Positions 36,418 to 57,600 of a stretch of DNA of 64,000 nucleotides are shown piece by piece. The stretch comes from Candidatus Latescibacterota bacterium (lineage in GTDB: Bacteria; Latescibacterota; UBA2968; GCA-2709665). Numbering within the stretch: the first letter of the stretch is position 1; the number at the start of each line of letters is the position of its first letter. A program made the position numbers and the translations under genes. Location of the stretch: positions 2,464,001-2,528,000 of the forward strand of contig OZ241917.1 in the NCBI GenBank assembly GCA_965203805.1. Reading direction: 5' to 3'. The notes under the pieces are model-generated. The model was not told where the DNA came from, did not search any database, and worked only from the letters and a program-made list of their open reading frames with translations.

Positions 36418-36576
36418 AAAATCCGGCGCGCGGGACCCCCCGGTCAAGAAGGAGATGTTCGCGCCTTGCCTCCTCTCCGAAACGTCGGATTCGCACGGGT
36501 TTCCCCGTACCTCAGCGGCCTTTTTGCACGTTCTTCAAGTTAACCTCAATTCAAAAAAAGACAACCGTTTAATTGG

Positions 36577-36603
36577 CCACAAAAAGCACAGAAAACACAG
36601 AGG
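36577..36603. repeat. Short 9-bp-period trimer in an intergenic region
   Basis: CCACAAAAA GCACAGAAA ACACAGAGG. Confidence 0.45.
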
Positions 36604-36714
36604 GTATCGGTGCGAAACGGCGTAATAAGGTCGCTCAAATGGTCTTCTTCTCCGTTCGCGTCCCCCTGCGTTAAACTCGCCGGAACGCCGACGCCGAATC
36701 GCCTATGCCGTGCA

Positions 36715-38742: not shown

Positions 38743-40073
38743 TCACCGGTCGACGGCGCGAACGGATTGATCCAGACAACGGCCGTGGTCCCCCAGTCGG
38801 TGGACATGATATCCTCGTAGCCATCTCCGTCCAAATCCGCAAGACGGACGATATTGGGCCAGTTGAGCCCCGCGCCGTCGCCAAGTCGCGTGGCCTCCCA
38901 GAAGGATCCGTCGCCCCTTACATTCCTGAACACGTAGACCCCATCCCCGCCATCGGATGGCGCCACGATATCCAGGCGCCCGTCCCGGTCCACGTCCCCA
39001 ATGTCGAAGGAATAGGCGTGACCCAGACCGCCCGCGATCTCATGGAAACGCCATTCGCTCCCGGGACCCACGCGTTCCCGCCAAGCCAGGTACCCGTTTC
39101 GGAGACTGGTCTCCACACAGTCCAGATCGCCGTCCGCGTCGAGGTCCGCGAATCGCGCGTGGACCTGGGAAACGGGCTTGTCGGAAAAGCGGCCGACCCA
39201 TCGGCGCACCGAATCGGCGGATGCCACGTGGATGGAATCCCGCTTCCATTCCATCCCTTTTCCATCGGAATTGATCAGCAGAAACGGCCTGGACGCATGC
39301 TCGGAGGCGCAGACGAGATCCATATCGCCGTCCCGGTCCACGTCTCCGGCGTCCACGCCGATGATGGGAGGCAGATCCAAGGGAATCGCCACTTCCTCCC
39401 ACGGCGTCGACTGCCGTGGGTCCTGGCGATACCAGCCCACTTTGCTCCCTGAATCCGATATCGAGGTGACCACGATATCGTCGAGTTTGTCGCCATCGAC
39501 GTCTGCAACCACGGCCCGTACCGGTAGTTCGAGCACCTTCGACCGGAGGAGGGTCTTTTTCCAGTGTCCTCCGTCCGCAGTCTCGTAGATGACTGTCTCT
39601 CCAGACAGATAGCAGGGGATTACGACGGCGGATTTTCCGGCCGCGGTGCGACGGACAACAACGGCGTCCTTTGGCGTAACCTGCCGGTCGTCGAGCTGGT
39701 GAATTCGAAAAACCAGTCCTGAATCCGGCCGCACGGCGACGTTCTCGAGCCAGTAGACCATGCCGTATTCACGATCTTCTCCCGGGACCGTTTCTCCGCC
39801 TGACTGAAAGGCAACCACGAGGTCGAGGTCGCCGTCCCCGTCGAAGTCGGCGGCGTGGATGCCATAGGAATTGGTCCCGTCAAGCGATGTGCCACCCCCG
39901 TCACCCAGGGGGACAACCCGCCACTTCGCGGCCGCATCGGCGGCCAATCCCTTCACGTTGGGACTGAGGGCCAGAATCTCGGGAGGGACCTGGGCGGCGG
40001 CGGGAACGACGGCTGCGCAGACCACGGCCGCGACGATGCCCACGCAATACGTCCGCAGGGAGAAGCCCGACAT
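38739..40073 (-). CDS. Secreted FG-GAP/VCBS repeat protein
   Basis: Start re-assigned to ATG 40073; signal peptide; multiple D.DGDG..D.. repeats. Confidence 0.9.
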   Translation of the reverse strand: MSGFSLRTYCVGIVAAVVCAAVVPAAAQVPPEILALSPNVKGLAADAAAKWRVVPLGDGGGTSLDGTNSYGIHAADFDGDGDLDLVVAFQSGGETVPGEDREYGMVYWLENVAVRPDSGLVFRIHQLDDRQVTPKDAVVVRRTAAGKSAVVIPCYLSGETVIYETADGGHWKKTLLRSKVLELPVRAVVADVDGDKLDDIVVTSISDSGSKVGWYRQDPRQSTPWEEVAIPLDLPPIIGVDAGDVDRDGDMDLVCASEHASRPFLLINSDGKGMEWKRDSIHVASADSVRRWVGRFSDKPVSQVHARFADLDADGDLDCVETSLRNGYLAWRERVGPGSEWRFHEIAGGLGHAYSFDIGDVDRDGRLDIVAPSDGGDGVYVFRNVRGDGSFWEATRLGDGAGLNWPNIVRLADLDGDGYEDIMSTDWGTTAVVWINPFAPSTGE

Positions 40074-41293
40074 CACGGCCTCCCGGGCATCTTCGTCACG
40101 TGGATGCGTCCCCCGATCCCGCCCAGGTCCGCCGGCATCTGTCCCGAAGGCCGGTCCGCGCCGGGCCGGAAGTCCGGAACGCTCACGAGCCTGCTGCCTT
40201 CCTCGATCGAATCCACGGCCAGCACCGCCGGCGCCATCGAATCCATCACCCGGTACACGTCGTAGGCCAGCTCCTCGCCCTTCAGGATCGCGTCGCGGAA
40301 ATACATATGCACATAGTAGTCCGCATCGCCGTGTCCGCTCCCCCGCGCCTCCGGCGGCGCGTCTGTCCGACTGTACTGCCAGTCGACCTCCGTCCAGTCG
40401 TTCATCTGCGTGTCCGCCAGCCACAATTTCGGCTTCTCCTTTCCGGACCGCCGCCACTCCACGCTTCCCTTCGTCCCGATCATCTGCCACCAATGGTGGT
40501 CTCCGTGCGGCCTGGGTTGATTGAATCCGTTGAGCATCCGAATCAGGGTATCCTTTTCCGTCTTCATCAGCGCCACCTGAATGTCGGCGTTGAGCATCTC
40601 CGGCGTCGTGTAACTCGGCGGTTTGGTGCTCATGCCCGTGACCTCGACGACGCGGTCGTCCAGAATCTTCAGCAGGATACTCAGGTCGTACGAGGCGGAG
40701 ATGATGTAGGGCAGATACTGCGGATTCGCGGGTTCGGCCTCCGGGTGGTCGGGAAGCGCTTCTACGGGGTACTGTTTGCCGGTCCTGAAATCCTGAAACC
40801 ACTGATGGGTGCCGTAATAGCCCAGATACTGACCCTCGGCGTAGGTGATCTTTCCCAGCATCCCGTCGTCGACCAGCTTCTTCCATCCGTCCACGAACCC
40901 CCAGAACCGCGTCTGCTCCGCAAGGCTGTAGACCAGTCCGGTCCGTTCCACGTTCGTGACGATGCGCCAGCACTCCTCCATCGTATGGGCCCCGGGCACC
41001 TCGCAGTTGACGTGCTTCCCGGCCTCCATGGCCTCTGCGGCCATGGTCCCCTGCTCCATCTGCCTCACCACAAGCCCCACCGCGTCCATCCCGTCGTACG
41101 ACAGGAAATCGTAGTAGTTGCCGAATACCTTCACGTCGCCGCGGTTCTCGATCTCCGCCAGGGCCCGCTCCTGCAGCGGCTCGATCCAGTCGTAGATCGC
41201 CGTTATCCGGTAGCCCGGCACCTTCTGCAGCAGCCGGATCCAGTGCAGCCCGCGGTGACCCAGCCCGGCAATGCCGATTCTGATTTCATCCAT
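40073..41293 (-). CDS. Gfo/Idh/MocA family oxidoreductase (GH109-like), paralog A
   Basis: GIAGLGHRG, GKHVNCEVP, TYAEGQY, GSGHGDAD; GGGAGG RBS before ATG 41293. Confidence 0.92.
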   Translation of the reverse strand: MDEIRIGIAGLGHRGLHWIRLLQKVPGYRITAIYDWIEPLQERALAEIENRGDVKVFGNYYDFLSYDGMDAVGLVVRQMEQGTMAAEAMEAGKHVNCEVPGAHTMEECWRIVTNVERTGLVYSLAEQTRFWGFVDGWKKLVDDGMLGKITYAEGQYLGYYGTHQWFQDFRTGKQYPVEALPDHPEAEPANPQYLPYIISASYDLSILLKILDDRVVEVTGMSTKPPSYTTPEMLNADIQVALMKTEKDTLIRMLNGFNQPRPHGDHHWWQMIGTKGSVEWRRSGKEKPKLWLADTQMNDWTEVDWQYSRTDAPPEARGSGHGDADYYVHMYFRDAILKGEELAYDVYRVMDSMAPAVLAVDSIEEGSRLVSVPDFRPGADRPSGQMPADLGGIGGRIHVTKMPGRP

Positions 41294-41578
41294 CGATGCC
41301 TCCCTTCGTGTTTTCGCTAACACCTTTTCACTACTCTCTCATCGGAGTAGGTACCACGTCACAGATCGTTCGGATGCGTCCTGTCCTCGTGCGCACCCAC
41401 GACCCCCCGAAAACGTAACGGGCATGCCTGATGCGGGCATCGCCTGTGTCGTTCCGTGCGTGAATTGAGCTTTTCGGGATGAGGCAATTGAAGCGAACGA
41501 ATCTAATTCTCAATCCGCTTTCCAACGCCTGCGGGGAACATCAGCCAACGTTTCTCCTCCTATGCCTACTCGCTCGAT

Positions 41579-44500
41579 TCATTTCCGCCTCTTTAGCCGC
41601 TTCTGTGCTTCTTGTAATAAGCGTTTCCGGTCAATTTCAGGAGTTACAGACCCTGAATTCTCTTGGAATTGATACTCTTGTTTGCTGAAATCGTCCGGTT
41701 TCGGCAATGGAGACCCCTGCAACAATAGATCCAGAATCCGGTGCGCTTGTTTGCGTTTCAACAAGCCCCTGCGTACGGCATTTTGTGCATCAATGCCCAA
41801 AATACAGTCCAGACAGGCAGTCTCACATCGGTCATGGTGGTCCGGATTTACATAAAGAACACGCAACGCTTCTTCAAGCCATAAACGACCTAACCCCAAT
41901 AGTTCTCGAACATGACCAGCACCGCCGGGAACATCGTCATAAAGCACGACACCCCATAAAGCACCATTCTCACCAGCCGGTACAGTCATCACACCGATTT
42001 CACGCGTATCCAGTTCAAGTACCTGAACCCCTGCACGTTGCAATGCATACCCCAAAGTCGTAATCAGAGCAAGGTCATGTGCCTGAGAATCTAGACAGCC
42101 GCAGAAATCAACCATCAACACATCCGTAATCTCACGTGCTGCTAACACCTGCCTTCGGATAATTTGGGGTTCCCCATCATGCCAGCAGCGCGTCCAAGGG
42201 TTTGAAGAATGCAAAGGCGCGTGGTTGACGAAATCAGTGGACAGCTTCTGGATTCCGTCGCCGTAATCTGTTTCGCTTTCGGCAAAACCACACTTGAGGC
42301 AAATGGCAAATCCTAGGTTATTTTCTCCTTTATTGTACACCATTATTTCGCCGTCTTCTTGATAGTGACAAACCAACCCTGGTATATCCCCCAAATTTTC
42401 GATGGGTGTCATTTCCTCATCCCGGTCCTGCAAAAATGTCATGGTAGCTGTCTCCGCAGAACCAATGCGTTCTATGTCGGTGCCAAATCTTGGGGATTCC
42501 CAAGCGGCACTACTAAAACCATGTTTGGGAAAAAGCATTGATTTGGGGGGAATGACAGGTTCTGCTCCACATATAGGACAAGCATGTTCCGTCTTGGATA
42601 CCCAATAATAAAAATGTCCCTTGACACATTCACAGCACTGACCTCGCAAGCCAAAAGATGTATCTCCATCCGTCCAGTGCTTCAACAAGCCACGCGACGA
42701 AACCATTTTTCCACCCACCAACAGTTGAGATCCAGGTACATATTCTCGCAAAGCCAACAGACTGCTGCGTTCTAGTCGGTATTGATCTTCTTCGCGGACC
42801 CTATTGTGATGTTCTTGATCTGGTGCAATAACCCGCAACTTTTGCACACCGATGGGAAAACCATAATGAGGTAGAAATTGTCGATCAGCCAAACCCTCAA
42901 TGACCGTAATCGCATATAGAGCTCTCAATTGGTAACCAATTGCATTGGCCTGAGCCTGCTGTTCTTCTTCGGTAGTTCGCCAGCTTGATAGCAGATTCTC
43001 ATATTCTTCTCGCCAACTGTGAATGGCCTCACGAAAATCATCAATGGAATGTTGTAAAAAGCTGTGCCAATCCTCTAATTCTCTCAACAACCGGGTTTCA
43101 CCCAACAATGTCTCGATCGTAGTATCAAGTATTTCTTGACCCTTGTCTCGTACCCAATTCAGATAGCTTAAGAACTGTGCTTCTAGACCAAGGGCCTGTA
43201 ACTCGGGATTCCACCATGGAAAATCGAGTTGAGGTCCCGACGAAATAGGTGTTTGAACGCTCGGCTTCGGGTCTCCCTTACCCCAATATGCCACTCTTGG
43301 CACACCGCAAAATTCACCCATGTTGCCAAATGCATTCATCGCTCCCACATGCTGATCTTCAGGATAAATGGCTCGAAAAAATTCCCCGATCAAAAAGGAA
43401 TGAAAGTGACGCTTTACGACCCGGTTACGATCGAGAAAAACCAGAGGCTTGCGCAATGGACGATTAAGATAGTCGCCAACGCGATTGAAAACTTCCCGAT
43501 CATAAGGCTGCGTCCGGGCAAACGTAATCACAGCGGAAGAGCCATCAGATCGACGGCCTGCACGGCCGGCACGCTGCGAATAGTTGGCTTTGCCTGGCGG
43601 TACATTGCTCATCAATACTGCGTTCAATCCGCCGATGTCAATACCCAATTCCAGGGTCGTTGTCGCACTCAAGATATTACGAATGCCATATTTGAAAAGA
43701 TCCTGCAAGCGCCTGTTTTCATGGGGTGATAACTGCGCGCTGTGTTCTTCTGCCCACAACCCCATCTGGAAAACTTTCGCATCGCGATACTCACGCCGTT
43801 GCCTCCCGAAGCGAGCATCGTTGTCCAGTTCGGCATCTAAGACGGGCCTCAAAGTGCGATTACAACCAAATACGGGCGCACAGCCCAAAATGCTGCGATA
43901 CCACAGGTGCCCAGTCTTTTCACAGCGGTAAATGTTGACGGGGCGCCGCAAGCCCAGATGGTCAAAGACCAACTGTATAGCATCCTGTGTTGGTCCAGTT
44001 CCAGACTGTCTTGCGTGGCATTGAATCCAGGGCAATTGCCCATCCGAGGGTTTTTTCCCTGCAGGATGCGCCGCTTCCATCAACTGTTCAAATGCCGTAT
44101 TGAGTACCCGGTTAGCCAAATCCTCAATGCCGTCTGACACACCACAGGCCCTCAATACTTGAGCGGCAAACCACGATCTACGCTGCCGCAAGGTTTGTCC
44201 CACGAAGCTAACCAATCGATTGCCAGATGCTTGTTCGGCACACCAATAGCCTATATACGGCACATCAAATTGGGTGTCTTTCACGGCATCCGAATCCTCA
44301 AGCGCAATAACCCCATCGGATCTAAGCGTATCACACAATGCTTTAAGGAAGTCCCCCCATATCTGAGTCAACAGGGTTCGTGCCTTTTCATGGGGTAGGA
44401 CACCAACTAAAGTACTAGGCACGATCAATTCATCAATCCCGGGATAGGTCACTTCAACCAGACCGAGATTTTCCAATAAGTTATCACCCCGAGAGGTGCG

Positions 44501-46918
44501 GGCAAATTCGTTTGCCAAATACAGTTTGGCATGCCGCTTCACCTGTTCATGATTCACTTCCCATTCGCGTTGTCCCCATACTTCCCCATCCTTTTCAGGC
44601 ACGTGACGAGATGCTGTCTCACGGTCGAGCAATTCTGATAGGAAGGGTTGACCAGACAGTTTTTTACACCAGTCATCAATAGAGCCACCTGCAGCTGCAC
44701 TCTTCGCCTGTAATCTCCAAATTTGTAGGGTATTTTCGATTACCTGTCTCAATCCATGAACAAGATCCGGTTTTGCAAGTTTCTTTTCTTGTTCTTTGAT
44801 CATCTCTTCAATGCCAGCAGCCGTTTCTTCTCCTCCCAGTGGTTCGTCAACAATCTGCTTTAATATGGCAGCACGAATAACTTGCAATTCGTGCTGCGCT
44901 GTCAAGCGAGGGCCTAATCGCGCCGCTTCCCGCCGGCTGTCACTAAAGACCAGCAACCGCCGGCCACGTGCAGGCAGGTAGTTTTTCGAAAGCGTCGGGA
45001 AATGCGGCATCTCTGACAATACTGTTTCGGTCAAAATTGATAGAATAAGCCGCGACCGGCGAGCAAACGAAACAAAAGCCTGTTGTCCTTCACCACACCG
45101 AGGGCACTCTGAAATCTCATATAGAGAAACGGCTTTGGCGTCTGGTCCCCCTAACGCAGCAGTAATAGGATCAATGAAATATTCCCGGCCGTTTAAGGAC
45201 GGCTGAAAATGAAAATACGAGGGTGTTTCTTCACCATCCGGAATAACGGGCTTGAGATACTGGCAGTCATGCTTTCCTGCCAATAGCCATTCCCCACAAT
45301 TCCGACATCGAAATAGGGAGAGCACCGCGCCTCCACAAGAAGAACAGGTTTCATGAAATCCTGAGAGAACACGCCCTGAAGATTTTAGCTTTAAGTGTTG
45401 ATCACCCGAACAGTCCGGATTAACACAAACGGATAACCCATCGTTGGATCGTGCCACCAAATGGATTCGGTGGGGAATTAAAGGATACTGATAGGGTAAT
45501 GCCCTTGCCGTTGCTGCAAGTTGGAGTAACACAATTGCCGCTTTCACTTCAACTTCCGTTTGGCCTCCCCAAAGTGTCTCAGCCAGTTCACCCAACGGCA
45601 GATGTTTCTTTTCCCACAGTTCTTTTTCCAATTCATGAATCAAAGGTGCGGCTCCCAACGTCTCCTTAAGTAGACGGGCTGGTACATTCCGTTCCTTAGC
45701 AGTGTCCACCAAAGCTGAATCGACCAAAACCGGCAGTTGTTGTCGCAACCGATTGCACATTTCTGGCTCATCAGCCAGTATAGGCTGCATATCGTCACCA
45801 TAGGTCATCAAAGGCCGGTCCAGCCAATCCTGTTGAATCAAATCGTCCGGCGCACAACCCCGCTCTGGCGGCGCGGGGATATCCAGATCAACACGTGTCG
45901 AGCGTCCTTGTATTATCTGAACGTGACCAATTGCCTTCGAAAAAATCGTCGCAGCAAACCTCTTGAGATCATTCAGGTTGTCCGACCCAAGAGTTGCAGA
46001 GGTCGCCATCTGTAGAAAATCTGAAGTTGAAACTCCGCAACGAATAGCAAGGCGTCTCAATAAGAGCGCGATTTCAGCGGCCAATGTTCCCGTGTATAAA
46101 TGCGCTTCATCCAGAACCACAGCACGAAGTCCTGGTCCAAAAAACACAGAATCCTGTGGCCTACAGAGCATGTATTCCAGCATAGAATAGTTCGTCACGA
46201 GAATGTCTGGCACTTGATCAGGATTAGGCTGGCTCTGTTTTCTACCTGTTTTCGGATTTTCCAGGCCTCTGGCCTCCTGTCTCGTGCGCACGCGGCAAGC
46301 ATCCCAGTCGGGAATACCTTGGCGATCAGCTGCTTTTTTATTTTCTGGTGTTTCACTGGTAAAGTGGAAAAGGCGGACACGTGTTTGGCCTTCTAGCCAA
46401 CTATAAAGACGGTCTACCTGATCATTGACGAGCGCGTTCATAGGATACAGGATGATACACTTCACGCCTTCTTGTTTCAGTGGAGAATCGTATAGCGCAT
46501 TTAGAATTGGTAACAGAAACGCCTCAGTTTTTCCTGTGCCGGTACCCGCGGTCACAACCACTGCTGGCTTTTCTGCCTGTTTTTCCAAATTTTCCGCACA
46601 ACACATGGCCTCGTATTGATGCGTATAAAGAGGCCGTTTAGAAGGTACAGCACCAGTTTTATCCAATTGATCGCGAAGCTGAGCGTCAAATCTTCCGGCA
46701 TCAACCAACTTGGCAAGCGTCCAATCAGACTGCTTCGCCGGGAAATTACCTTCAACCCACAAGTCGCTCAATAACCCGCCATTTTGCGGCGCAGAAGACC
46801 AAAATTCGCGACAAATGCCTGACAACTTCGGATCATTAACAAAGTTGTCGTCGACACAAAAATCCGTCAACCTTTGCCGGATTTTTGCAGACAATTGCAA
46901 TGCGTCAAGTTGTGCCAT
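41579..46918 (-). CDS. Large SF2 DEAD/DEAH helicase with Zn ribbons and C-terminal DUF1998 (DruE-like)
   Basis: LYTHQ, AGTGTGKT, YPMNAL, DEAH, SAT, VFSDSR, EEHSAQL, TTTLELGIDIG, QRAGRAGR, YDDVPGGAG...CETACLDC; several CxxC pairs. Confidence 0.93.
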   Translation of the reverse strand: MAQLDALQLSAKIRQRLTDFCVDDNFVNDPKLSGICREFWSSAPQNGGLLSDLWVEGNFPAKQSDWTLAKLVDAGRFDAQLRDQLDKTGAVPSKRPLYTHQYEAMCCAENLEKQAEKPAVVVTAGTGTGKTEAFLLPILNALYDSPLKQEGVKCIILYPMNALVNDQVDRLYSWLEGQTRVRLFHFTSETPENKKAADRQGIPDWDACRVRTRQEARGLENPKTGRKQSQPNPDQVPDILVTNYSMLEYMLCRPQDSVFFGPGLRAVVLDEAHLYTGTLAAEIALLLRRLAIRCGVSTSDFLQMATSATLGSDNLNDLKRFAATIFSKAIGHVQIIQGRSTRVDLDIPAPPERGCAPDDLIQQDWLDRPLMTYGDDMQPILADEPEMCNRLRQQLPVLVDSALVDTAKERNVPARLLKETLGAAPLIHELEKELWEKKHLPLGELAETLWGGQTEVEVKAAIVLLQLAATARALPYQYPLIPHRIHLVARSNDGLSVCVNPDCSGDQHLKLKSSGRVLSGFHETCSSCGGAVLSLFRCRNCGEWLLAGKHDCQYLKPVIPDGEETPSYFHFQPSLNGREYFIDPITAALGGPDAKAVSLYEISECPRCGEGQQAFVSFARRSRLILSILTETVLSEMPHFPTLSKNYLPARGRRLLVFSDSRREAARLGPRLTAQHELQVIRAAILKQIVDEPLGGEETAAGIEEMIKEQEKKLAKPDLVHGLRQVIENTLQIWRLQAKSAAAGGSIDDWCKKLSGQPFLSELLDRETASRHVPEKDGEVWGQREWEVNHEQVKRHAKLYLANEFARTSRGDNLLENLGLVEVTYPGIDELIVPSTLVGVLPHEKARTLLTQIWGDFLKALCDTLRSDGVIALEDSDAVKDTQFDVPYIGYWCAEQASGNRLVSFVGQTLRQRRSWFAAQVLRACGVSDGIEDLANRVLNTAFEQLMEAAHPAGKKPSDGQLPWIQCHARQSGTGPTQDAIQLVFDHLGLRRPVNIYRCEKTGHLWYRSILGCAPVFGCNRTLRPVLDAELDNDARFGRQRREYRDAKVFQMGLWAEEHSAQLSPHENRRLQDLFKYGIRNILSATTTLELGIDIGGLNAVLMSNVPPGKANYSQRAGRAGRRSDGSSAVITFARTQPYDREVFNRVGDYLNRPLRKPLVFLDRNRVVKRHFHSFLIGEFFRAIYPEDQHVGAMNAFGNMGEFCGVPRVAYWGKGDPKPSVQTPISSGPQLDFPWWNPELQALGLEAQFLSYLNWVRDKGQEILDTTIETLLGETRLLRELEDWHSFLQHSIDDFREAIHSWREEYENLLSSWRTTEEEQQAQANAIGYQLRALYAITVIEGLADRQFLPHYGFPIGVQKLRVIAPDQEHHNRVREEDQYRLERSSLLALREYVPGSQLLVGGKMVSSRGLLKHWTDGDTSFGLRGQCCECVKGHFYYWVSKTEHACPICGAEPVIPPKSMLFPKHGFSSAAWESPRFGTDIERIGSAETATMTFLQDRDEEMTPIENLGDIPGLVCHYQEDGEIMVYNKGENNLGFAICLKCGFAESETDYGDGIQKLSTDFVNHAPLHSSNPWTRCWHDGEPQIIRRQVLAAREITDVLMVDFCGCLDSQAHDLALITTLGYALQRAGVQVLELDTREIGVMTVPAGENGALWGVVLYDDVPGGAGHVRELLGLGRLWLEEALRVLYVNPDHHDRCETACLDCILGIDAQNAVRRGLLKRKQAHRILDLLLQGSPLPKPDDFSKQEYQFQENSGSVTPEIDRKRLLQEAQKRLKRRK

Positions 46919-46927
46919 AAATTACCC

Positions 46928-49900
46928 TTATAGATTGAGGACAATATCGTTAAGGATATTGATACAAAGATAACGGTTAAAGGGTTGCACATTCATTATT
47001 ATTTCGAGGTTTTCTCGCTCAATTGTTGTCAGAGGTTGCTTGTGTCCAACTTTTACCAATTTCGCACCATTTTGAGCTGTATTTTTCACAAAGAATGGGT
47101 CCAGCATCATGCTTTGCGCAGCTTCATTAAGATACCTTTCTTCCTCAACTCTAACGTCTCGCTCAGAAGCTCGTGACGGTAAAAGCAGAAAGCGTCGCTT
47201 GACACTCTTCAGATGGTCAATCCACTCGGACTCGCTGAAATTTCCGTAATTCGAAACCACCAATCCTTGTAGGACGTTCCCCATGAAAATGGGGTTTATA
47301 TTTCCAAGACACTGAAGTACTTCCCCAAAGTTGACGCAAAATCCATCTCGAATCATCAAACCTACCAATTCGGATGCTTGTTTAGGATCAACCTGCACCT
47401 GAGAGAATAATTCTCCAATGGTGGCCAACCACGTATCGAAAGTCTCGTTAAAGCATAGTCCTTTCACAAGCCCCTGATCCTGCATCCACGCAGATAACAC
47501 GGCGACTAATTCTGTTTCGAGGAAGCGGATGATTTTCTCTTTCCATGTCAGCTTGAGGATCGGAAAATGCAGCCATCGCATCATTGCTGCCACATTTTGA
47601 ACGTCTTCAGTATCCAGGAAACCCGAAATATCTATGCTATCTTCCCACCAACTCCCTATACACTCTCCACGATATGCAATGCCACAGGCGATCAACGGGT
47701 GGCTGACTTCCGCAAGCCATTTCCGACCGTCATACGCACGGATCTTGAATTGAGACGCAAGTCCACTGTGTGATAAACCAATCAAGAGATGATCAGGCCC
47801 CGGATCTACATCTCTGTGCAAGAAAATCTCGACACATGTTCCATCCATCAGCACCCGGTCTATAGTCCCACGGTCAATTACTGCGGTCGATAGTGTTAAC
47901 AGCTTCTCCCCAGGTAAGCAGTTATACGGTTTCTGCACTTTCAATGGGGCGCCCAATCCCACCAGTCCGCCGAGTGTCCTCGGACGCTTCCACAGCCTGC
48001 GCAAAAACACAGTCCCCTCCATCAAAGCGAGGTCGTTGAAGTGTCCTCCTCGCCAAGGATTCGGAACGAAAACTTGCACACGATTAGATTCCAGTTCTTG
48101 AATAGTCACACCTCGCAAAACAGACATCGGCTCCCAATGGGTCTTTCGGTAGATAGCCGATCCTATAAAGTCTAAATCAACTGGCAATCGAAGGCGCTTT
48201 ATTTCGCCGTTGTGGACCAAATGAAGTTCAATTTTACTACCTTGCCAGACAGCGAATGCGATCTCTGGTGTCAATTCGATATTTTCAATTCTCTTCTCCC
48301 CTGTCAGAGTTGTAACCGTGAGGGGTTTTTTGCAGAAAATAGCGTGGGAAATTTCGACGTCAGGAATGGTACTCTTGATAATCAAATCAAATCTGTCCCC
48401 AAATTCCAATTGGGTGTTTGGCACAGCATTGATCTGGATTTTTCGCTCCCAATCCAAATGACTGGATTTGGATTGATCTGAAGGTTCGAACATAGGGGAC
48501 CAAAAATCCTCTCCTTCGAAGGTGATCTTTAAGTCAGGTGTCCACCCTTTTTCCAGTAAGATCAAACGCCATTTTCCTTCTCCAACAAGCCGCCACGGCT
48601 CAATAGATGGTTCAACCTCAAGGTCCTTCAAGGTGATCAGCACATATTGTGACTGAGTATCCATTTGTCCGTTCCATGCGTCGATTTTGCTCCCAGAAGG
48701 GTACCGAAAGATACTGACCATCAGATCATCTTCGTCATTCCAAAGTTGGAGATCTTGAGTATAACACGTTTTGCCTTCCGAATCACATAAACGGATAATT
48801 TGTAGAGGACTATCAAGATGGATACGAATTTCCTCTATACCTCCATAGTTTCCATTGTTATCTCTATAAAGCGAACCTTCATATCGTTCCCCCACAAAGA
48901 GATCGTAGCGATCATCAATGATATCGATTAAATCAAGCTGTTTCAGAGAGCATTCAAAAAATGGCACGGCAACACCAACCCATCGAAGCCTGGGTTTATC
49001 GATTAACAAAATGTGTTGCTCGTCATCCTCAGCTGCCACTTCTACGTTGTCCGTTGTGGACAGTTTGTCCTCGAGGTTCTCAACCGACATTGCCGCATCC
49101 AGCACATCCTCTGTTTTTTCAGGTAGAACCCAGGGATTGACGTCGAGAATTTTTGCCGCTATATCCCGTGAAATGTGATTGAACCGAAAATCTCTTAGTG
49201 TATGGAATAGGCAATGGAAACTCTCACTTGTCGGGTGCGTACCTAACAAAAAATCAATCGAGCGGAGATTTTTGTGCCCTGTCAACGTCAAAGGGAGTTG
49301 TTTAAGATGGGACAAAGCAAAACCATATTGTAGTGTCATAGTTATGTAATAACTTTGCGTGCCTTCATGACCCAAAACATGCCGCAGATTGAATTTTCGA
49401 CAAGTAGACTCTATAATGTCCTTAAACCTTTGATTGATGCTCTGTTCACCTTGGAAGATAACCCTTCTGGCGTCGTCACTAAACCGCCTACGTACAAAAG
49501 GCCAGAGCATGCTTGATACAGCTTCTCTGCGACCGACTTCCACAGCAAAAAGAAGCAGCAACAGACCAGTTCCCAGAGCAATGGGAGCCACTTCCCCCTC
49601 ACCCCATTCAATAGGTTCGTCATAATTGTCCAATATTGCCCGCAAAGTAGATGCATCAATGTGCTTTGCCCACAAAATCAGCCATTGATACCCTTCGTGA
49701 TTTATACGTAATTCACATAAAGAACAAGGCTTTGGTAAATTTCCAACGGCTTTGATTATTCGCAGAATAGCTTCTCGAATTGCGTCGGGATCTTTTGGAT
49801 CCAATCCAATAAAGATATTTCTGTAACAGTCTCCTCTTCTGTCAATCCCGGCTAAGATTGCGTCATAATCTAAAATGCTGCCACCTAAGAGGGTTTTAGT

Positions 49901-51400
49901 GCTTTCTTTGGGCGGAGGTTCGGGCAAGGGCCGTGAAATTTTCTCTTCTGCATATTCAGGCAGTGCATAAACAGCTTGATCTACTTTCTTTATTCTGCCT
50001 GTGCGTTCTAAATTTTGAAGCACGTAATTGACTCGCGTTGCCGACAATCCTCCGGGAAAGTCCAGGAATAACCTCTGAGCCGTTGCTGCTATATCTTTGA
50101 AGTGGGCGGGGCATTTCAGGGTATTCAGCGTGCGAATTATGCAAGATGGCAATCGTCTGGGGGACCGGTGACTTTCTTCTGCGCGATCAAATAAAATGTC
50201 CCCTTCTGTTTTGCTAAAGTCGCCAAGGCATTTTCGCGCAGCAGACAGATATCCTTCTTTGTCAATATTATATTCATCCTCCCAAGTTTCCAGTCCGGGC
50301 AAATTTGCAGAGTCCTCCGCCCAGTTTACCCACAGCCAGTCACTATCATAGACCTGGATTGGTGTTACCATTGCCATTGTTCTCAAAATTTGGCACAAAC
50401 CACGGCGGGTGATCCGTCTTCCAAAGTAACCTTCCATCTTTTCTGCAATCGTATCAGGATGCACAAGACGTATGGACGGCAAATCAAATAGGTTTTGACC
50501 TAAAGCATAACCAAACGACTTCCGATGTGTAGGGTGCTGAAGCCGGTCAACCGCCTTTTTCACTTTCTGCCGTACTCTTTCCTTTGTAATCCGTAACGAC
50601 AGACCCAATTCTTCAAGTGTGTGTCCATCGAGTATCCTTCTCTCAAACAATGTCCTTTCGTCGTCATCAAACTGAGATAACCAGTAATCGTTATGGGCAC
50701 CATCCAGTTGGACCGGCTTTGACATTTCACATTGAGCGCGCACCTCAAATCCATCCCAGAAAAGTACAAATTCAGTTTGCAGTCCCCAATATTGACAAAA
50801 TGAAAGGAATGTACGCATGTAGGCGGCAGATATGTTATCCACACCTGATTTTTCAATGACTCCTACCTGTTCCAATAGAGTCCACAGTTCGTCTGGCTCC
50901 AATTGATAGGGGCTGGCTATCAAACGGCAGATTCTCTCGCCAAGCGTTTCAGTGATGAGTTCTCTTGGTTCTGCCTGTGAGCACCAGGTCAGTAGGCATC
51001 TACAGGCCGATTCAATCAGCGTTTTTCGCGATATAAATCCCATCGGCGAACATCTGTCTTTGTGCTCAAGAACAACATAAACGGGATGATGAAGCAGAAC
51101 CTTTTCTAACTGCGATAGCGAGACAGCAGATTTGTCGTATACAGGTTCGATCCAATCGTGAATTTGCTCTGCTGTACGCGCAGGTGCAGGAATTTTCGCA
51201 TTCCAACCGAGCAACTCTTCGACGTATTTCAAGTCTTCGAAAGCGCAACTTTCAATTTCATTAGGTAGTCCTTCAGCCGGAGAATCAATCGATGCATACG
51301 GATAATTGGACATGTCCCATCGAACGCGACAATTGATGTGTTTATAATTCGAAAATGATGGTCCTGCATTAACCTTCCCCATAGACACATCCCTCAACAT
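46928..51400 (-). CDS. Large hypothetical protein with sigma70 region-4 HTH, HARE-HTH-like winged helix and a ~1000-aa uncharacterised C-terminal region (DruH-position partner; start uncertain)
   Basis: TLEELGLSLRITKERVRQ; PAHFKDIA..RVNYVL..GRIKKVDQAVYALPEY; ends 9 bp before the helicase ATG. Confidence 0.8.
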   Translation of the reverse strand: MLRDVSMGKVNAGPSFSNYKHINCRVRWDMSNYPYASIDSPAEGLPNEIESCAFEDLKYVEELLGWNAKIPAPARTAEQIHDWIEPVYDKSAVSLSQLEKVLLHHPVYVVLEHKDRCSPMGFISRKTLIESACRCLLTWCSQAEPRELITETLGERICRLIASPYQLEPDELWTLLEQVGVIEKSGVDNISAAYMRTFLSFCQYWGLQTEFVLFWDGFEVRAQCEMSKPVQLDGAHNDYWLSQFDDDERTLFERRILDGHTLEELGLSLRITKERVRQKVKKAVDRLQHPTHRKSFGYALGQNLFDLPSIRLVHPDTIAEKMEGYFGRRITRRGLCQILRTMAMVTPIQVYDSDWLWVNWAEDSANLPGLETWEDEYNIDKEGYLSAARKCLGDFSKTEGDILFDRAEESHRSPRRLPSCIIRTLNTLKCPAHFKDIAATAQRLFLDFPGGLSATRVNYVLQNLERTGRIKKVDQAVYALPEYAEEKISRPLPEPPPKESTKTLLGGSILDYDAILAGIDRRGDCYRNIFIGLDPKDPDAIREAILRIIKAVGNLPKPCSLCELRINHEGYQWLILWAKHIDASTLRAILDNYDEPIEWGEGEVAPIALGTGLLLLLFAVEVGRREAVSSMLWPFVRRRFSDDARRVIFQGEQSINQRFKDIIESTCRKFNLRHVLGHEGTQSYYITMTLQYGFALSHLKQLPLTLTGHKNLRSIDFLLGTHPTSESFHCLFHTLRDFRFNHISRDIAAKILDVNPWVLPEKTEDVLDAAMSVENLEDKLSTTDNVEVAAEDDEQHILLIDKPRLRWVGVAVPFFECSLKQLDLIDIIDDRYDLFVGERYEGSLYRDNNGNYGGIEEIRIHLDSPLQIIRLCDSEGKTCYTQDLQLWNDEDDLMVSIFRYPSGSKIDAWNGQMDTQSQYVLITLKDLEVEPSIEPWRLVGEGKWRLILLEKGWTPDLKITFEGEDFWSPMFEPSDQSKSSHLDWERKIQINAVPNTQLEFGDRFDLIIKSTIPDVEISHAIFCKKPLTVTTLTGEKRIENIELTPEIAFAVWQGSKIELHLVHNGEIKRLRLPVDLDFIGSAIYRKTHWEPMSVLRGVTIQELESNRVQVFVPNPWRGGHFNDLALMEGTVFLRRLWKRPRTLGGLVGLGAPLKVQKPYNCLPGEKLLTLSTAVIDRGTIDRVLMDGTCVEIFLHRDVDPGPDHLLIGLSHSGLASQFKIRAYDGRKWLAEVSHPLIACGIAYRGECIGSWWEDSIDISGFLDTEDVQNVAAMMRWLHFPILKLTWKEKIIRFLETELVAVLSAWMQDQGLVKGLCFNETFDTWLATIGELFSQVQVDPKQASELVGLMIRDGFCVNFGEVLQCLGNINPIFMGNVLQGLVVSNYGNFSESEWIDHLKSVKRRFLLLPSRASERDVRVEEERYLNEAAQSMMLDPFFVKNTAQNGAKLVKVGHKQPLTTIERENLEIIMNVQPFNRYLCINILNDIVLNL

Positions 51401-51555
51401 TGGGGCGGTGATTGGAATTAGCCTCGGTTCGTTCTCAAATATTGACGTACGTTGGTTCAGTCGTCACATCGCAACCTGTCTCACCCTTGGAAAACGGAAT
51501 TGACTCCGCCCGTCGTTCCATCGACCTCTGATCGCACCCACTTACGGCTTCTCTA

Positions 51556-52473
51556 TCACACCGGATGGCGCTCGCAGCCCAGGGCCTGCGCGATCGCCCG
51601 GATGTGAGACGGCCCCGCGCCGCAGCACGCGCCGATGAAGTTGATTCCCTCGGCTTTCGCCTTCAGCGCGTATTGGGCCATCTCGCTTCCCGATACGATC
51701 ATCGATTCGCGGATCACCGAATTGTTGGGACCGGCATTGCGATAGCCCTGCGGCTGGTAGGCGATGGGGATGTCCACGGCTTCCCGCATCGCCAGGACCC
51801 CCGGCCACATGGTCATCGAGTCGCCGGAGCAGACCAGACCCACGATATCCGCGCCTTCGTCCGCCAGGACCTTCGCGCACTCCGCGGGCGTGGCGCCGTC
51901 GTGCGTCCGGCTGCTCGAGCCCATCAGCACCATCGCGGGAACGTCGGTTTTCTTGCAGCGAGACAGGCACAGCCGGGCCTCGTCGAGGCGGGCGAACGTT
52001 TCCGGCACCAGAAGTCCGGCGCCCGCGTCCACCATCCAGGAAATGTGTTCGTCCCACTCCGCGCATGCCCGCTCCCGCGCACGTGCATTGCCGGGTTGAT
52101 AGATATACGGCCCCGTCCAGGAGCCCGCGGCCGTCTGGTTCAGGCAGCCGGCGACAAGGGCTTCATCGCCGGAAGCCTCCCGGGCCAAACGGATTGCCGT
52201 ACGGGAAATCTCCTCGAGCCGGGCCGCCTCCCCGTCGGCCCCCTCACCCGATATGTCGCGGCGTTCCAGTTGCGACCGGCTGGTCCACCAGGTCTGCGCC
52301 TGGAGCACGTGGGAACCGGCCCTGTAGAAATCCTGATGGATCTGACGCAGCGCGTCCGGATCTTCCAGAATCATCGCGGGCGTATCGTACCCCCGCCACC
52401 TGGCCTCGATAATCATCCCCCCATCGCTCAGAACAACGCCCTCTTCCAACATCTTCAACAGGTCCATTCCCAT
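51556..52473 (-). CDS. Homocysteine S-methyltransferase (BHMT/MmuM-like) family protein with Zn ligands intact
   Basis: LSDGG, HQDFYRAGS, PETF, VGLVC, IGACCG. Confidence 0.9.
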   Translation of the reverse strand: MGMDLLKMLEEGVVLSDGGMIIEARWRGYDTPAMILEDPDALRQIHQDFYRAGSHVLQAQTWWTSRSQLERRDISGEGADGEAARLEEISRTAIRLAREASGDEALVAGCLNQTAAGSWTGPYIYQPGNARARERACAEWDEHISWMVDAGAGLLVPETFARLDEARLCLSRCKKTDVPAMVLMGSSSRTHDGATPAECAKVLADEGADIVGLVCSGDSMTMWPGVLAMREAVDIPIAYQPQGYRNAGPNNSVIRESMIVSGSEMAQYALKAKAEGINFIGACCGAGPSHIRAIAQALGCERHPV

Positions 52474-52555
52474 TCCAGTCCTCCTTTGCAATATTCATCC
52501 CAAGCCCTGCTCATTGCTGCTGCGAATGCCGGCGGCGACGATCCCCCGTTGCCTC

Positions 52556-53491
52556 TCAACGCGGTCGGAGTTCGATGTGTTTTCGCTCGCAGTCCAATGC
52601 CTGGGCCATCGAACGGAGGAGTCGCACGACCGCCCCGCCGGACCCGCCCAGAAACCGGATATCGTGCGCAATCGCTTTCAACGCGTACTGTCCCAGCTCC
52701 ATCCCGTAGACGTGCATGGCCTCCCGCATGTGCTTCCAGTGCGCCCGGCACGTGCGGTAGCCATTCGGCAGAAAGGCGATCGGCGTGTCCACGGCCTCCC
52801 GCATTTCCAGCACCACCGGCCACAGGTCCTCCGGTTCCCGAATGCCGCCCCCGCCCACGACGTCGGCGCCGTCGCCTGCCAGAGCACGTGCGCACTCGGC
52901 CGGCCCGGCACCGTCGGCGGTGACTTCGTCGTCTCGTAGCAGGGGATTGTTCAGTCTCCCTTCCGGCAACACGACGTCCACGGAAACCACGACGGGAAGC
53001 GCGGTCTTCCTGCAGCACGCCAGCGCGAGGCGTGCTTCGTCCAGCCGACCGAACGACTCGCAGACGAGCATATCCACACCCTCGCCTGCCAATATCTCCA
53101 CCTGCTCGTCCCACTCCGCCCGGGCGCGGTCCGCCGATCCGGCGTCGCCGGCCTGAAAGGCCCCCGTGGGAGACAGCGTACCCGCCACCAGCGCTTCCGC
53201 TCCGGCCGCGCGTTTCGCCAGGGCCACGGCCCGCCGGTTCAATGCGTCGACCGGGTCGCCCCCACCCCCTGTTCCCCGTTCGCCAACGCCGGTTCGCGTA
53301 CACCGGCCCGTGAGGGCTCTGATCACACCGGCGCCGGCCCGGAAGTAATCCTGGTGAGCCAGCCGCACCGCGTCCGGGAAGTCCTCGAGCACCCACGGCG
53401 CAGCGTATCCCCGCAGTCTCAGTTCCTCCACGTTCCCGCCATCGGCCAGCACGAACCCTTCTTCAAGGGTACTCAGAACGGACTCAGGCAT
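52556..53491 (-). CDS. Homocysteine S-methyltransferase family paralog lacking the Zn-binding cysteines
   Basis: LADGG, HQDYFRAGA, CESF; VGGGG and LGGSGG replace VGxxC and GGCCG. Confidence 0.85.
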   Translation of the reverse strand: MPESVLSTLEEGFVLADGGNVEELRLRGYAAPWVLEDFPDAVRLAHQDYFRAGAGVIRALTGRCTRTGVGERGTGGGGDPVDALNRRAVALAKRAAGAEALVAGTLSPTGAFQAGDAGSADRARAEWDEQVEILAGEGVDMLVCESFGRLDEARLALACCRKTALPVVVSVDVVLPEGRLNNPLLRDDEVTADGAGPAECARALAGDGADVVGGGGIREPEDLWPVVLEMREAVDTPIAFLPNGYRTCRAHWKHMREAMHVYGMELGQYALKAIAHDIRFLGGSGGAVVRLLRSMAQALDCERKHIELRPR

Positions 53492-53630
53492 AAATAGCCT
53501 CCTCTCCTTTATCCATCTCACAACAGTCTATACAAGTGGCCAATTTGAAGACCCCAAAAATGGTAAACCCACTCAAGAATTGCTTACCTGAAAGCGACGG
53601 GCTTTACGTCACAAATCAACTTCCTTCCTT

Positions 53631-53788
53631 GCCCTTTTTCTTGCTGCGCCCAAGAAAAAGGGCGAAAAAGAAGGGCGCCTGCCTGCCGAGCAGGCTTCGG
53701 CCTGTCTGCCGTTCCAACGGGACAGGCAGGCGCAGGCAGGCCGCTCGGCGCCTGTCTGCGTGCGTGAGACAGCACGCACAGGCAGGCG
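53631..53788. repeat. Cluster of nested palindromic REP-like elements
   Basis: Perfect 13-bp hairpin GCCCTTTTTCTTG/CAAGAAAAAGGGC (53631-53663); three CCTG(C/T)CTGC left arms with CAGGCAGG right arms. Confidence 0.8.
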
Positions 53789-54067
53789 GGGCCGGTTTTT
53801 CCGTGAACCAACTCACTGCCGTAGTTGGAAATTGGCTGCCCTGTTACCGGATTAGGCCATCCCAAGCGATGGTGCTGGACGGAATAGCACGGAAAAACCC
53901 CCCACACCACAACCGTACGCTACAAACGTCCTCGCGAAGATTCGTTCGATTATGTTCTTACGCGATATCGCGCTTACAATCCCCCCACTCCGCCACCGGC
54001 TTACCCCCTATTCCGCTTCCTGAACGAAGGAGGAACTACCACCGCTTGGTGGACGCCTGTCTCTTCT

Positions 54068-54132
54068 CCCCCTCTCCTCACAGGAGAGGGGGCCTGCCTG
54101 CCGGTGGTTTTTCGGCAGGCAGGGGGGAGAGG
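54068..54132. repeat. REP-like hairpin with an adjoining CCTGCCTGCCG/CGGCAGGCAGG palindrome
   Basis: CCCCCTCTCCT/AGGAGAGGGGG (54068-54092) directly followed by an 11-bp-stem hairpin (54093-54123). Confidence 0.8.
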
Positions 54133-54198
54133 TCTGCGGCCGCTATGGCCCTGCCACTTCACGGCGCTGACGCCGGTTTTGCCTTTCGCTTCTTGTCT

Positions 54199-54350
54199 TT
54201 GCTTCAAGCTGACTGCTTGTTGCTGGTTTGTCTTTCTTTGTGTCTTTGTGTCTTCGTGTGAGTTGAATGTCGTTTTGCTCTGCGCTGACCGGTTTATGTC
54301 TTATTGTTCTTGCTTCAAGCTGACTGCTGATGGCTGACCGCTGATCGCTG
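54199..54350. repeat. Direct and short tandem repeats downstream of DUF6785 paralog B
   Basis: 19-bp TTGCTTCAAGCTGACTGCT at 54199 and 54310; (TCTT[T/C]GTG)x3 at 54235-54258; (GCTGANN)x4 at 54319-54346. Confidence 0.75.
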
Positions 54351-54354
54351 CTCT

Positions 54355-56358: not shown

Positions 56359-56373
56359 GGATCCCCCGTTCGC

Positions 56374-57579
56374 CTACGGCGAGCGCAACCCCACGCCGCC
56401 CGGGTCCGCGGGAAACTCGCCCGCCGCCCGATCCCCGTTCGGGCGAAAATCGGGAACCCGCATCAACCGGCTCCCCTCCTGTATCGAGTCGATCGCCCGT
56501 ACGGCCGCGGCGACCGTATCCATGGCCCTGTACACGTCAAAGTCCAGCGCCCTCCCATTCAGGACCGCGTCGCGAAAGTGCATATGCACATAGGAATCCG
56601 CGTCGCCGTGGCCGCTGCCGCGCGCCTCGGGAGCCGCATCCGTGCGTTCGTAACGCCAGTCCACTTCCGACCAGTCGTTCATCTGTGCGTCCGCGAACCA
56701 GGCTTTCGGCATCTCGCTGCGGGACCGGCGCCACTCCAGACTCCCCTTCGTGCCGATCAGCTGCCACCAGTGGTGGTCACCGTGCGGCCGCGGCTGCGTG
56801 TGGCCGTCCAGCATGCGAATCAACGTATCCTTTTCGGTCTTCATCAGCGCCACCTGCACATCGGGCTTTCCAATCTGGGGATGCGCGTAGCTCGGTCTCT
56901 TCGTGCTCATCGCCGTCACTTCGGTCACCCGGTCGTCCAGGATCTTCAGCAGGATGCTCAGGTCGTAGGAGGAGGCGATGATGGGCGGCGTATCGTGGGG
57001 AAACGTCGGACGGGCTTCGGGATGCTCGGGCAGTTCCTCAATTGAATATTGCCTGCCGGTTGCGTAGTCCTGAAAAAACTGATGCGTACCGTAATACCCG
57101 ACGTACTGGCCTTCGGCATACGTAATCTTGCCCAGGCGTCCATCGTCAACCAGGCGCTTCCATCCGTCCACGAACCCCCAGAACCGGGTCTGCTCCGCCA
57201 GGCTGTAGACCAGCCCCGTACGCTCCACGTTGGTTACGATTCGCCAGCATTCCTCCATCCTGTACGCGCCCGGCACCTCGCTGTTCACGTGCTTGCCCGC
57301 TTCCAGCGCCTCCGCCGCCATCCGCCCCACCTCGCGCTGCCGCACCACAAGGCCCACCGCATCCATCGGTTCGTAAGCCAGAAACGCTTCGTAGCTGCCG
57401 AACGCCGGCACTTCGTCCCGATAGGAGATCTCGGCAAGGGCCCGAGCCTGAAGCGGCTCGATCCAGTCGTAGACGGCCGCGATCCGGTAGCCGGGAATGT
57501 TCTGAAGCAGCCTGATCCAGTGCAGCCCCCTGTTTCCCAGGCCCGCGATCCCGATGCGTATTTCATCCATAGCCTTCAC
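56374..57579 (-). CDS. Gfo/Idh/MocA family oxidoreductase (GH109-like), paralog B
   Basis: Long blocks identical to 40073-41293 (e.g. ECWRIVTNVERTGLVYSLAEQTRFWGFVDGWK). Confidence 0.92.
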   Translation of the reverse strand: MKAMDEIRIGIAGLGNRGLHWIRLLQNIPGYRIAAVYDWIEPLQARALAEISYRDEVPAFGSYEAFLAYEPMDAVGLVVRQREVGRMAAEALEAGKHVNSEVPGAYRMEECWRIVTNVERTGLVYSLAEQTRFWGFVDGWKRLVDDGRLGKITYAEGQYVGYYGTHQFFQDYATGRQYSIEELPEHPEARPTFPHDTPPIIASSYDLSILLKILDDRVTEVTAMSTKRPSYAHPQIGKPDVQVALMKTEKDTLIRMLDGHTQPRPHGDHHWWQLIGTKGSLEWRRSRSEMPKAWFADAQMNDWSEVDWRYERTDAAPEARGSGHGDADSYVHMHFRDAVLNGRALDFDVYRAMDTVAAAVRAIDSIQEGSRLMRVPDFRPNGDRAAGEFPADPGGVGLRSP

Positions 57580-57600
57580 TCCCTAAACGGTTTACAACGC

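Follow-up and report, generated by a model that had tools for sequence, protein, structure and literature searches.

What do the two very large genes of a low-GC island in the genome of Candidatus Latescibacterota bacterium encode, and do they form a new defence system? The island lies on contig OZ241917.1, within the 64-kb stretch that was analysed here (positions 2,464,001 to 2,528,000; hereafter the window, in whose numbering positions are given). An earlier note, made from the letters alone, had called the pair a candidate new Druantia-III-like system. The kinship with Druantia type III held, and the claim of a new system was too strong: compact type III systems with a PLD-less DruE helicase and a single partner are already described as III-B in the texts of Bell et al. 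(10.1101/2025.09.15.676423) and Himpich et al. (10.64898/2026.05.13.724758). The pair is a variant of known Druantia type III, not a new system. What is new, to judge by the papers searched, is a DruH-like partner that is missed by the PADLOC DruH models and is fused to sigma-70 region 4. The whole island is probably a Druantia type III module for defence, made up of two genes, horizontally acquired and of the compact (III-B) kind without a nuclease tail. Its layout is as follows.

41313 to 51546: inserted low-GC island of about 10.2 kb, with the two genes, about 266 bp downstream and about 146 bp upstream
46928 to 51400, minus strand: partner gene, an open reading frame (ORF) of 1490 amino acids (P0001), DruH-like with an N-terminal extension
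46919 to 46927, minus strand: spacer of 9 bp between the partner stop and the druE ATG
41579 to 46918, minus strand: druE, 1779 amino acids (P0002), compact PLD-less Druantia type III helicase

On the minus strand the partner stands upstream and the helicase downstream in the ORF list, two large co-oriented genes 9 bp apart as the earlier note had them. The database copy of the partner is 1484 amino acids long and begins at Met7, and the homologues align from residue 7; the true start is therefore probably at window position 51382, with a protein of 1484 amino acids.

The helicase carries the features that had been read from it at first sight, superfamily 2 motifs, CxxC ribbons and a terminal DUF1998. 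Seven CxxC were counted, and Pfam recognised DEAD, Helicase_C and MZB/DUF1998, with no nuclease domain in the protein, which ends at residue 1779.

45899 to 46624, minus strand: RecA1 / DEAD-box region, residues ~99-340, with GTGKT at 127 and DEAH at 270
43550 to 43762, minus strand: Helicase_C (RecA2), residues 1053-1123, with QRAGRAGR at 1115
41801 to 42052, minus strand: MZB / DUF1998 zinc-binding domain, residues 1623-1706, Pfam E 5.5e-8

In PADLOC, the check that had been proposed for the helicase, the best model was DruE3 PDLC00037 (E 5.1e-215, 715.5 bits), followed in order by DruE3 PDLC00035, DruE1 (1.1e-153), DruE3 PDLC00036, DruE2 (1.2e-97) and DruE4 (1.2e-90); seven PADLOC DruE models scored below 1e-88. 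The nearest solved chain was 9tu7_Y, a DEAD/DEAH helicase of 2108 amino acids (8.2e-81), and the MrfA/YprA repair helicase (6znp_A) followed far behind at 3.9e-18. The match to PDLC00037 ends at model position 1708 of 2055. As the reference type III pair we used that of the E. coli plasmid CP057056.1, in which a 1119-amino-acid protein matching ten PADLOC DruH3 models is followed by a 2104-amino-acid DruE (2180 bits on DruE3). Residues 38-1729 of the helicase align to residues 41-1712 of this DruE at 25% identity, and because the helicase ends about 50 residues past the last aligned part, it lacks the C-terminal PLD tail. The C-terminal part of type III-A DruE carries two PLD-like domains, as described in the available text of two preprints (10.1101/2025.09.22.677730; Bell et al. 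10.1101/2025.09.15.676423). The text of Bell et al. also describes a separate branch of type III-like helicases, most often without a nuclease domain, and names GIH50614.1 as the III-B representative. The helicase is accordingly classed as the DruE of Druantia type III in its compact PLD-less form, known as III-B, an assignment that rests on architecture matched to the published description and not on position in a tree.

Three known systems serve for comparison. Type III-B, as known from its published description, shares with this locus two co-directional genes, the partner upstream of DruE, no further system genes, and a DruE with YprA-like core and MZB and without PLD domains; the partner here differs by an extra N-terminal region of 555 residues with sigma-70 region 4. 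Type III-A of E. coli and P. aeruginosa (DruH of about 1119 and DruE of about 2104 amino acids), for which four 2026 preprints report cryogenic electron microscopy and biochemistry in the parts available, has the same gene order and the same order of helical domain, immunoglobulin (Ig)-like repeats and helical domain in the partner core. The DruE here lacks the C-terminal ~390 residues that bear the two PLD domains, and the partner core is about 185 residues shorter, has about 5 sandwiches instead of 6 and matches no DruH3 hidden Markov model (HMM); no Zorya or ARMADA neighbours were found among the eight flanking ORFs scanned. In Mycolicibacterium smegmatis (MSMEG_1253/1254; PMC13316683, Cell Insight 2026), DruE is likewise PLD-less, 1667 amino acids long with only DEAD, Helicase_C and DUF1998, and there is likewise a single large partner, of 1132 amino acids, a DruH in which the available text reports no recognised domain. 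According to that text, the PLD-less DruH-DruE pair defends and blocks phage DNA circularisation and replication. A cluster look-up and a homology search with P0130 yielded no named actinobacterial relatives of the partner family described below.

A word-indexed search with the partner returned only 11 proteins, its own copy P0003 included. Eight homologues are 61-75% identical, seven of them over 89-100% of the protein and one over 78%, and two stand-alone relatives (943 and 974 amino acids) align at 27% identity to partner residues 560-1486. As the stand-alone relatives align to this part only, residues 1-555 were treated as an extension and residues 556-1490 as a core that exists on its own.

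49736 to 51400, minus strand: N-terminal extension, residues 1-555
50534 to 50683, minus strand: sigma-70 region 4 helix-turn-helix (HTH), residues 240-289, with TLEELG at 261 and the recognition helix TKERVRQ at 272-278; Pfam E 3.8e-9
46931 to 49735, minus strand: DruH-like core, residues 556-1490
~49061 to 49735, minus strand: helical N domain of the core, from the AlphaFold2 (AF2) model
~47645 to 48991, minus strand: Ig-like beta-sandwich region of the core, from the AF2 model
~46931 to 47629, minus strand: helical C domain of the core, from the AF2 model

A profile built from 5 core sequences was run against 1.84 billion representatives and matched 844 proteins at E <=1e-3 and 465 at E <=1e-30. 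Among the matches listed, 149 proteins (own-family representative left out) were distributed by length as follows.

Below 900 amino acids: 27, mostly fragments
900-1020 amino acids: 87
1020-1100 amino acids: 4
1100-1300 amino acids: 18
1500-2171 amino acids: 13

The family is closely tied to DruE. A core relative was found in 15 contig loci from Latescibacterota, Dehalococcoidia and other Chloroflexota, Blastocatellia, Chthoniobacteraceae and Opitutales, and in 14 of these tblastn with P0002 detected a DruE homologue (38-82% identical) 1-480 nucleotides downstream on the same strand. Co-occurrence of homologous pairs, which had been put forward as a check, is thus borne out. The exception is L013, on the Blastocatellia contig JBDIBI010000021.1 of a metagenome-assembled genome (MAG), where the partner (9890-12814) lacks a DruE and has an ISL3 transposase (13038-14654) directly downstream; L013 is a second partner copy, and a complete partner-DruE pair (L012) stands on the same contig. 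Loci L010 and L015 are cut by a contig end, and in L006, L008, L014 and L016 one or both genes are broken into several ORFs in the assembly. The same pair also occurs on a Roseomonas mucosa plasmid, with a partner of 1403 amino acids (hhalign 99.8% to the core profile) and a DruE of 1755 amino acids. Given the 14 loci and the Roseomonas plasmid, the pairing of partner and DruE is conserved across phyla.

Two observations were made at these loci in passing. Upstream of the L013 partner lies a gene for a 1646-amino-acid STAND-like NTPase / TPR / FHA / GGDEF protein. Partner, druE or both are split into at least two frames in several long-read MAGs (L006, L027 and L028 of G087, and also L008, L014 and L016), through either errors of sequencing or genuine decay of the genes.

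Is the core a DruH? We regard this as likely, the core then being a very diverged member. The AF2 model of the core (69 sequences) was well resolved, with a predicted local distance difference test (pLDDT) of 89.2 and a predicted template modelling score of 0.87, and in core numbering it has a helical part at 1-225, a beta region at 249-697 (about five sandwiches as parsed) and a second helical part at 703-935. Published DruH, as described in the available texts and in that of Hu et al., has an N-terminal helical domain, tandem Ig-like domains (6 sandwiches) and a C-terminal helical domain. The AF2 core model has this layout when compared with the published text, by description and not by superposition, and with about 5 sandwiches against 6. 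The PDB matches of the core model in Foldseek were tandem Ig-like proteins only, for example CSF-1R, PirB, invasin, contactin and titin, with no chain described as DruH or Druantia among them. In the ESM Atlas the nearest clusters carry PF27201 YjiT_N (score 0.91, in 11% of members; score 0.90, in 93% of members), and the 0.90 cluster bears the name STY4851/ECs_5259 family; the E. coli DruH relatives go by this name and have the same Pfam set. In a joint MAFFT alignment, invariant columns pair residues of E. coli DruH with residues of the core (E75 with E66, R78 with R69, W88 with W78), and the motif AAE..RR....G.W is common to the N domains of core and DruH. The most conserved positions of the core also lie in the N helical domain (G612, E621, R624, R625, W633 and Q691 of P0001), which would fit an active or regulatory site there. 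In domain-wise comparisons the best scores fell mostly on matching core-DruH domain pairs. Himpich et al. (10.64898/2026.05.13.724758), in the text available, call the III-B partner DruH.

The sequence tests gave this assignment no significant support. PADLOC, including the DruH check that had been proposed for the partner, returned no family for the window partner even at E <=10 and no match for 4 partner relatives at E <=1, and none of its DruH3 models matched the Roseomonas partner. With a 69-sequence core profile, hhalign gave 0.14% against E. coli DruH alone and 6.2% against a 20-sequence DruH profile. Domain-wise hhalign gave E 0.026 for N against N (172 columns) and E 0.002 for the Ig region against the DruH middle (340 columns), none significant, and the non-matching pair of core C domain and DruH N domain, at E 0.017, scored better than the N-N pair. 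PDB sequence searches with two core profiles found no chain. The Pfam release used is without the DruH families PF27201 YjiT_N and PF27205 YjiT_2nd, and E. coli DruH itself matched 0 families in it. An attempt to map the published PaDruH catalytic residues was dropped, R22, K28, E64 and E220 occurring together in no sequence of the DruH alignment.

These non-significant HMM and profile results would all be expected if the partner were an analogue of DruH, that is an unrelated Ig-repeat family in the DruH position beside a compact DruE, making up a distinct system; tandem Ig-like folds are common and arise easily. Such an analogue would nevertheless have to account for the same order of the three domain types, the same position upstream of DruE and the N-domain motif in common. 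Language-model features furthermore put the core beside YjiT/DruH clusters, and the partner of III-B is already named DruH in the literature, so far as its texts were available. We therefore consider an analogue improbable and read the core as a very diverged DruH. The earlier statement that the partner matched nothing recognisable over most of its length stands in so far as standard HMMs are blind to it; it does not stand for the C-terminal 935 residues, which belong to the 844-representative family and have a DruH-like architecture.

The N-terminal extension is where the partner departs from III-B as described. Searches of Pfam, NCBIfam, PHROGs and PDB sequences with the whole partner matched sigma-70 region 4 only (~240-295), which bears out the sigma4 assignment of the earlier note. 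The region 4 sequence of the window partner is

TLEELGLSLRITKERVRQKVKKAVDRLQHP

and Sigma70_r4 was also found in all six close homologues scanned with Pfam. Compared with region 4 of the eight group-1/2-like sigma genes in this genome, the fused region 4 shows 41-55% identity and retains their T[KR]ERVRQ helix; it is of the housekeeping type, with the -35 recognition helix motif intact. The extension as such was found only in close Latescibacterota relatives (BLASTP, P0004-P0011); of the 15 loci, 3 have it. Residues 296-555 had no PDB sequence match, and the AF2 model of residues 1-555 (9 sequences) was unusable, with a pLDDT of 41.8.

Other identities were tried for this region. The partner shares the region 4 motif TLEE.G....T[KR]ERVRQ with sigma-70 factors and with MzaA of the MZA system, and only region 4 of these proteins matches it. 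As a sigma factor it was rejected because no other sigma region, region 2 included, matched at the Pfam and NCBIfam thresholds used: Pfam gave Sigma70_r4 only, and the NCBIfam models match residues 224-295 only, far below their cut-offs. The MzaA model NF041931, whose cut-off is 800 bits, scored 16.2 and matched no more than residues 258-294. The winged helix that had also been suggested for the partner was not recovered: Pfam found no HARE-HTH in the partner at E <=0.1 or in any of 6 homologues at E <=10, and the single lead was an ESM Atlas score of 0.81. Sigma-70 genes are themselves numerous in this genome, the eight group-1/2-like paralogues being an unusually large set. One of the eight lies in the window at 8031-8735 on the plus strand (G000:C1:2472031-2472735); its score on TIGR02393, 254 bits, falls short of the 354 required for RpoD.

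RNA polymerase modules recur in the core family beyond the Latescibacterota fusions. In 31 family members longer than 1100 amino acids, Pfam recognised Sigma70_r4 in 8, RNA_pol_A_CTD in 4, TerB in 1 and HHH_5 in 1. Iterated local HMMs found sigma region 4 in nine of these proteins (P0063, P0079, P0087, P0101, P0110, P0124, P0129, P0153 and P0154) and the RNA polymerase alpha subunit C-terminal domain (alpha-CTD) in P0048, in six tandem copies, and in P0124, P0153 and P0154. Of these alpha-CTD proteins, all but P0048 also have sigma region 4, placed after the alpha-CTD, and a PDB search with P0154 matched alpha subunit CTD at 105-181 (4.3e-9) and sigma region 4 at ~280-344 (5.1e-5). An alpha-CTD-like start was also considered in P0098, P0130, P0132, P0138, P0144 and P0145; P0138, the one tried, had 0 PDB matches at E <=1. 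In a core tree (FastTree LG+gamma, 139 sequences of at least 850 amino acids, midpoint-rooted, one topology), the sigma-bearing forms fell in at least 4 clades with stand-alone forms between them, a scatter that may have arisen by several gains or by several losses. Beside stand-alone partners, no separate sigma or alpha-CTD ORF was seen in 17 loci (three Latescibacterota fusions excluded).

No description of these sigma region 4 or alpha-CTD fusions was found in the paper texts searched. In the text of Himpich et al. the word 'sigma' has 0 occurrences, and a term look-up in the available text of Bell et al. returned reagent names only.

The N termini of other long family members are of different kinds. 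In P0021, P0028, P0032, P0035 and P0091 (1135-1241 amino acids) the N-domain motif (...SLAEL..D.ED..WL..W...) occurs one more time, at the start of the protein and ahead of the complete core, which suggests a duplicated N helical domain rather than a foreign module. P0113, P0117, P0131 and P0136 (~1200 amino acids) have a conserved N-terminal ...SYK[FY].[FL][FL]L[SA]LL... segment, with no Pfam match at E <=0.001.

The two-gene island, in the earlier note an AT-rich pair inserted among sugar-metabolism genes, is a horizontally acquired insertion. Its GC content is 0.437-0.499 across the 1-kb bins of 42000-50999, against 0.607-0.671 in the flanks (bins 30000-40999, with the exception of 31000-31999 at 0.584, and 52000-63999). 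A 14-kb query across the locus was compared with all the other genomes of the genus, 14 in number (G045-G058). Both flanks were present in all of them at 82-92% identity, and the two genes were absent from all. The gap between the flanks measured 8-160 bp in eight of these genomes and 1134-1237 bp in the remaining six. In all 14, homology of the left flank stops at window 41303-41363 (query 1804-1864) and that of the right flank resumes at 51545-51569 (query 12046-12070); from these break points the insert was placed at ~41313-51546. The site between a GFO/IDH/MocA gene and an S-methyltransferase-family gene is therefore variable within the genus, being empty, filled with ~1.13-1.24 kb or occupied by the Druantia pair. 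The only filler of about 1.2 kb that was read (L031) has a 308-amino-acid ORF at 567-1493 with a NigD_C-like domain.

Within the phylum, 4 of 168 genomes contain the partner core, this one included, and it was absent from the 14 other genomes of the genus and from the 21 other genomes of the same family. The three related Latescibacterota carriers have no flanking genes in common with the window, and in them the GC content of the pair and its surroundings was 0.43 vs 0.53, 0.43 vs 0.62 and 0.46 vs 0.54. Eight flanking ORFs were scanned with Pfam and comprised three GFO/IDH/MocA oxidoreductases, one FG-GAP protein, two DUF6785/DUF6784 proteins and two homocysteine S-methyltransferase-family proteins; in agreement with the earlier note, no DNA methyltransferase or defence gene, nor an integrase, was among them. 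No tRNA was found within the 64-kb window, and direct repeats bracketing the island amounted to nothing beyond chance-like 14-29-nt matches.

How might such a module work? The analysis itself establishes which genes these are, that they were inserted, that the pairing is conserved, what fold is predicted and that RNA polymerase modules are fused repeatedly; the anti-phage activity of the pair and every mechanistic step are inferred here from studied type III systems. In these, DruE loads at junctions of single-stranded DNA (ssDNA) and duplex and unwinds 3' to 5', according to the texts available. By analogy, the partner would sense infection and bind or trim exposed single-stranded 3' DNA, and DruE would load on the resulting ssDNA-duplex junction and unwind invading or replicating phage DNA. 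Replication or circularisation of the phage DNA would then be blocked, rather than the DNA being degraded via a DruE nuclease. Since the DruE here is tail-less, an effect like that of the M. smegmatis pair, a block of circularisation and replication, is the more likely one.

Some points weigh against this reading. Scans for promoters and terminators at the locus gave counts equal to those of shuffled sequence. The role of DruH is moreover disputed in the parts of the literature available: one paper describes an exonuclease with its catalytic cleft in the N helical domain; DruH of Hu et al. binds ssDNA with ATP competing and has no nuclease activity; and in Wu et al. DruH senses late phage proteins, with an N-terminal regulatory surface and a dimer-dependent nuclease activity.

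The extension with its sigma region 4 may serve in targeting or in sensing. As a tether it would hold the DruH-like protein at promoter-like duplex DNA or at RNA polymerase; as a sensor it would provide the surface for recognition of a phage factor. Tethering to promoter-like DNA is the role that we tentatively favour, at somewhat less than even chances, and docking on RNA polymerase seems unlikely. In the text of Himpich et al. (10.64898/2026.05.13.724758), the host proteins H-NS, StpA and RcdB associate with type III-A DruE and contribute to defence; built-in DNA-binding modules in the core family could play the role of such host DNA-binding proteins.

The strongest rival to a targeting role is an integrated decoy. 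The fused sigma region 4, and alpha-CTD in relatives, would then mimic host RNA polymerase parts that are seized by phage early proteins, and binding of the phage factor would switch on the DruH-like partner and DruE, region 4 binding no DNA in this role. Region 4 being of the housekeeping type and similar to the genome's own sigma factors is in keeping with mimicry, as is the N-terminal recurrence of two different RNA polymerase modules in several clades. Phages target sigma region 4 and alpha-CTD. Published DruH is described as an infection sensor with an N-terminal regulatory surface responsive to phage proteins (the available texts of Wu et al. and, for M. smegmatis Gp25, PMC13316683). The triggers given in these texts are, however, late structural proteins and not RNA polymerase modifiers. 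Of the 12 fused domains shown, 8 retain the -35 recognition helix motif, which fits DNA binding at least equally, and with an identity of only ~52% region 4 is not very close to the nearest host sigma for a mimic. On balance a decoy role for the extension is not very likely, though somewhat less remote than the other alternatives below. The broader proposal, that DruH-type sensors of compact Druantia repeatedly captured sigma-70 region 4, alpha-CTD or both as integrated decoys guarding RNA polymerase, is likewise doubtful. If it were true, the system would fire when a phage takeover factor grabs the fused copy, as a bacterial counterpart of plant integrated-decoy receptors, and the kind of trigger would be named for a defence family whose sensing step is disputed.

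Rather improbable is a built-in regulator, in which sigma region 4 would be an HTH that binds the promoter of its own operon for autoregulation, with no sensing or targeting. Region 4 is a plain HTH, and many defence systems carry HTH regulators. Here, however, the HTH is fused to an effector or sensor of 930 residues instead of standing as a separate gene, no convincing promoter or operator repeat was seen upstream of the partner, and six tandem alpha-CTD in one relative, like alpha-CTD plus sigma region 4 in three, would be odd for autoregulation. A pair that is not for defence at all, namely a housekeeping DNA-repair or transcription-coupled pair of an MrfA/YprA-like helicase and an RNA-polymerase-associated partner, agrees with the kinship of DruE to that repair helicase (6znp_A) and with the RNA polymerase module of the partner, but is very improbable given its absence from all 14 congeners and from 164 of the 168 phylum genomes, the low GC, the variable site, the lack of synteny among carriers and DruE3 models far above those of repair helicases.

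With the core read as a very diverged DruH and its extension as a possible tether, the pair bears on a point left open in Druantia III, which became mechanistically tractable only in 2026: whether DruH is an exonuclease, an ssDNA binder or a phage-protein sensor, as the available texts variously have it. Compact DruE helicases have the diverged DruH-like family as their standard partner in Chloroflexota, Acidobacteriota, Verrucomicrobiota and Latescibacterota, as well as on an alphaproteobacterial plasmid. Since the DruH models miss this partner, annotation by PADLOC probably leaves it uncalled and may under-count the systems. The N terminus of the family is a variable port, often occupied by RNA-polymerase-derived modules, and offers a concrete handle on the way in which the partner finds its target or trigger.

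A minor observation concerns the surroundings of the island. Paralogous DUF6785/DUF6784 genes lie on either side of it, at window 36715-38742 and 54355-56358 (minus strand), each beside GFO/IDH/MocA genes, and a segment of the left flank repeats at 76% identity about 17 kb rightward of its own position (G000:C1:2520396-2521570). These features point to duplicated gene cassettes around the site.

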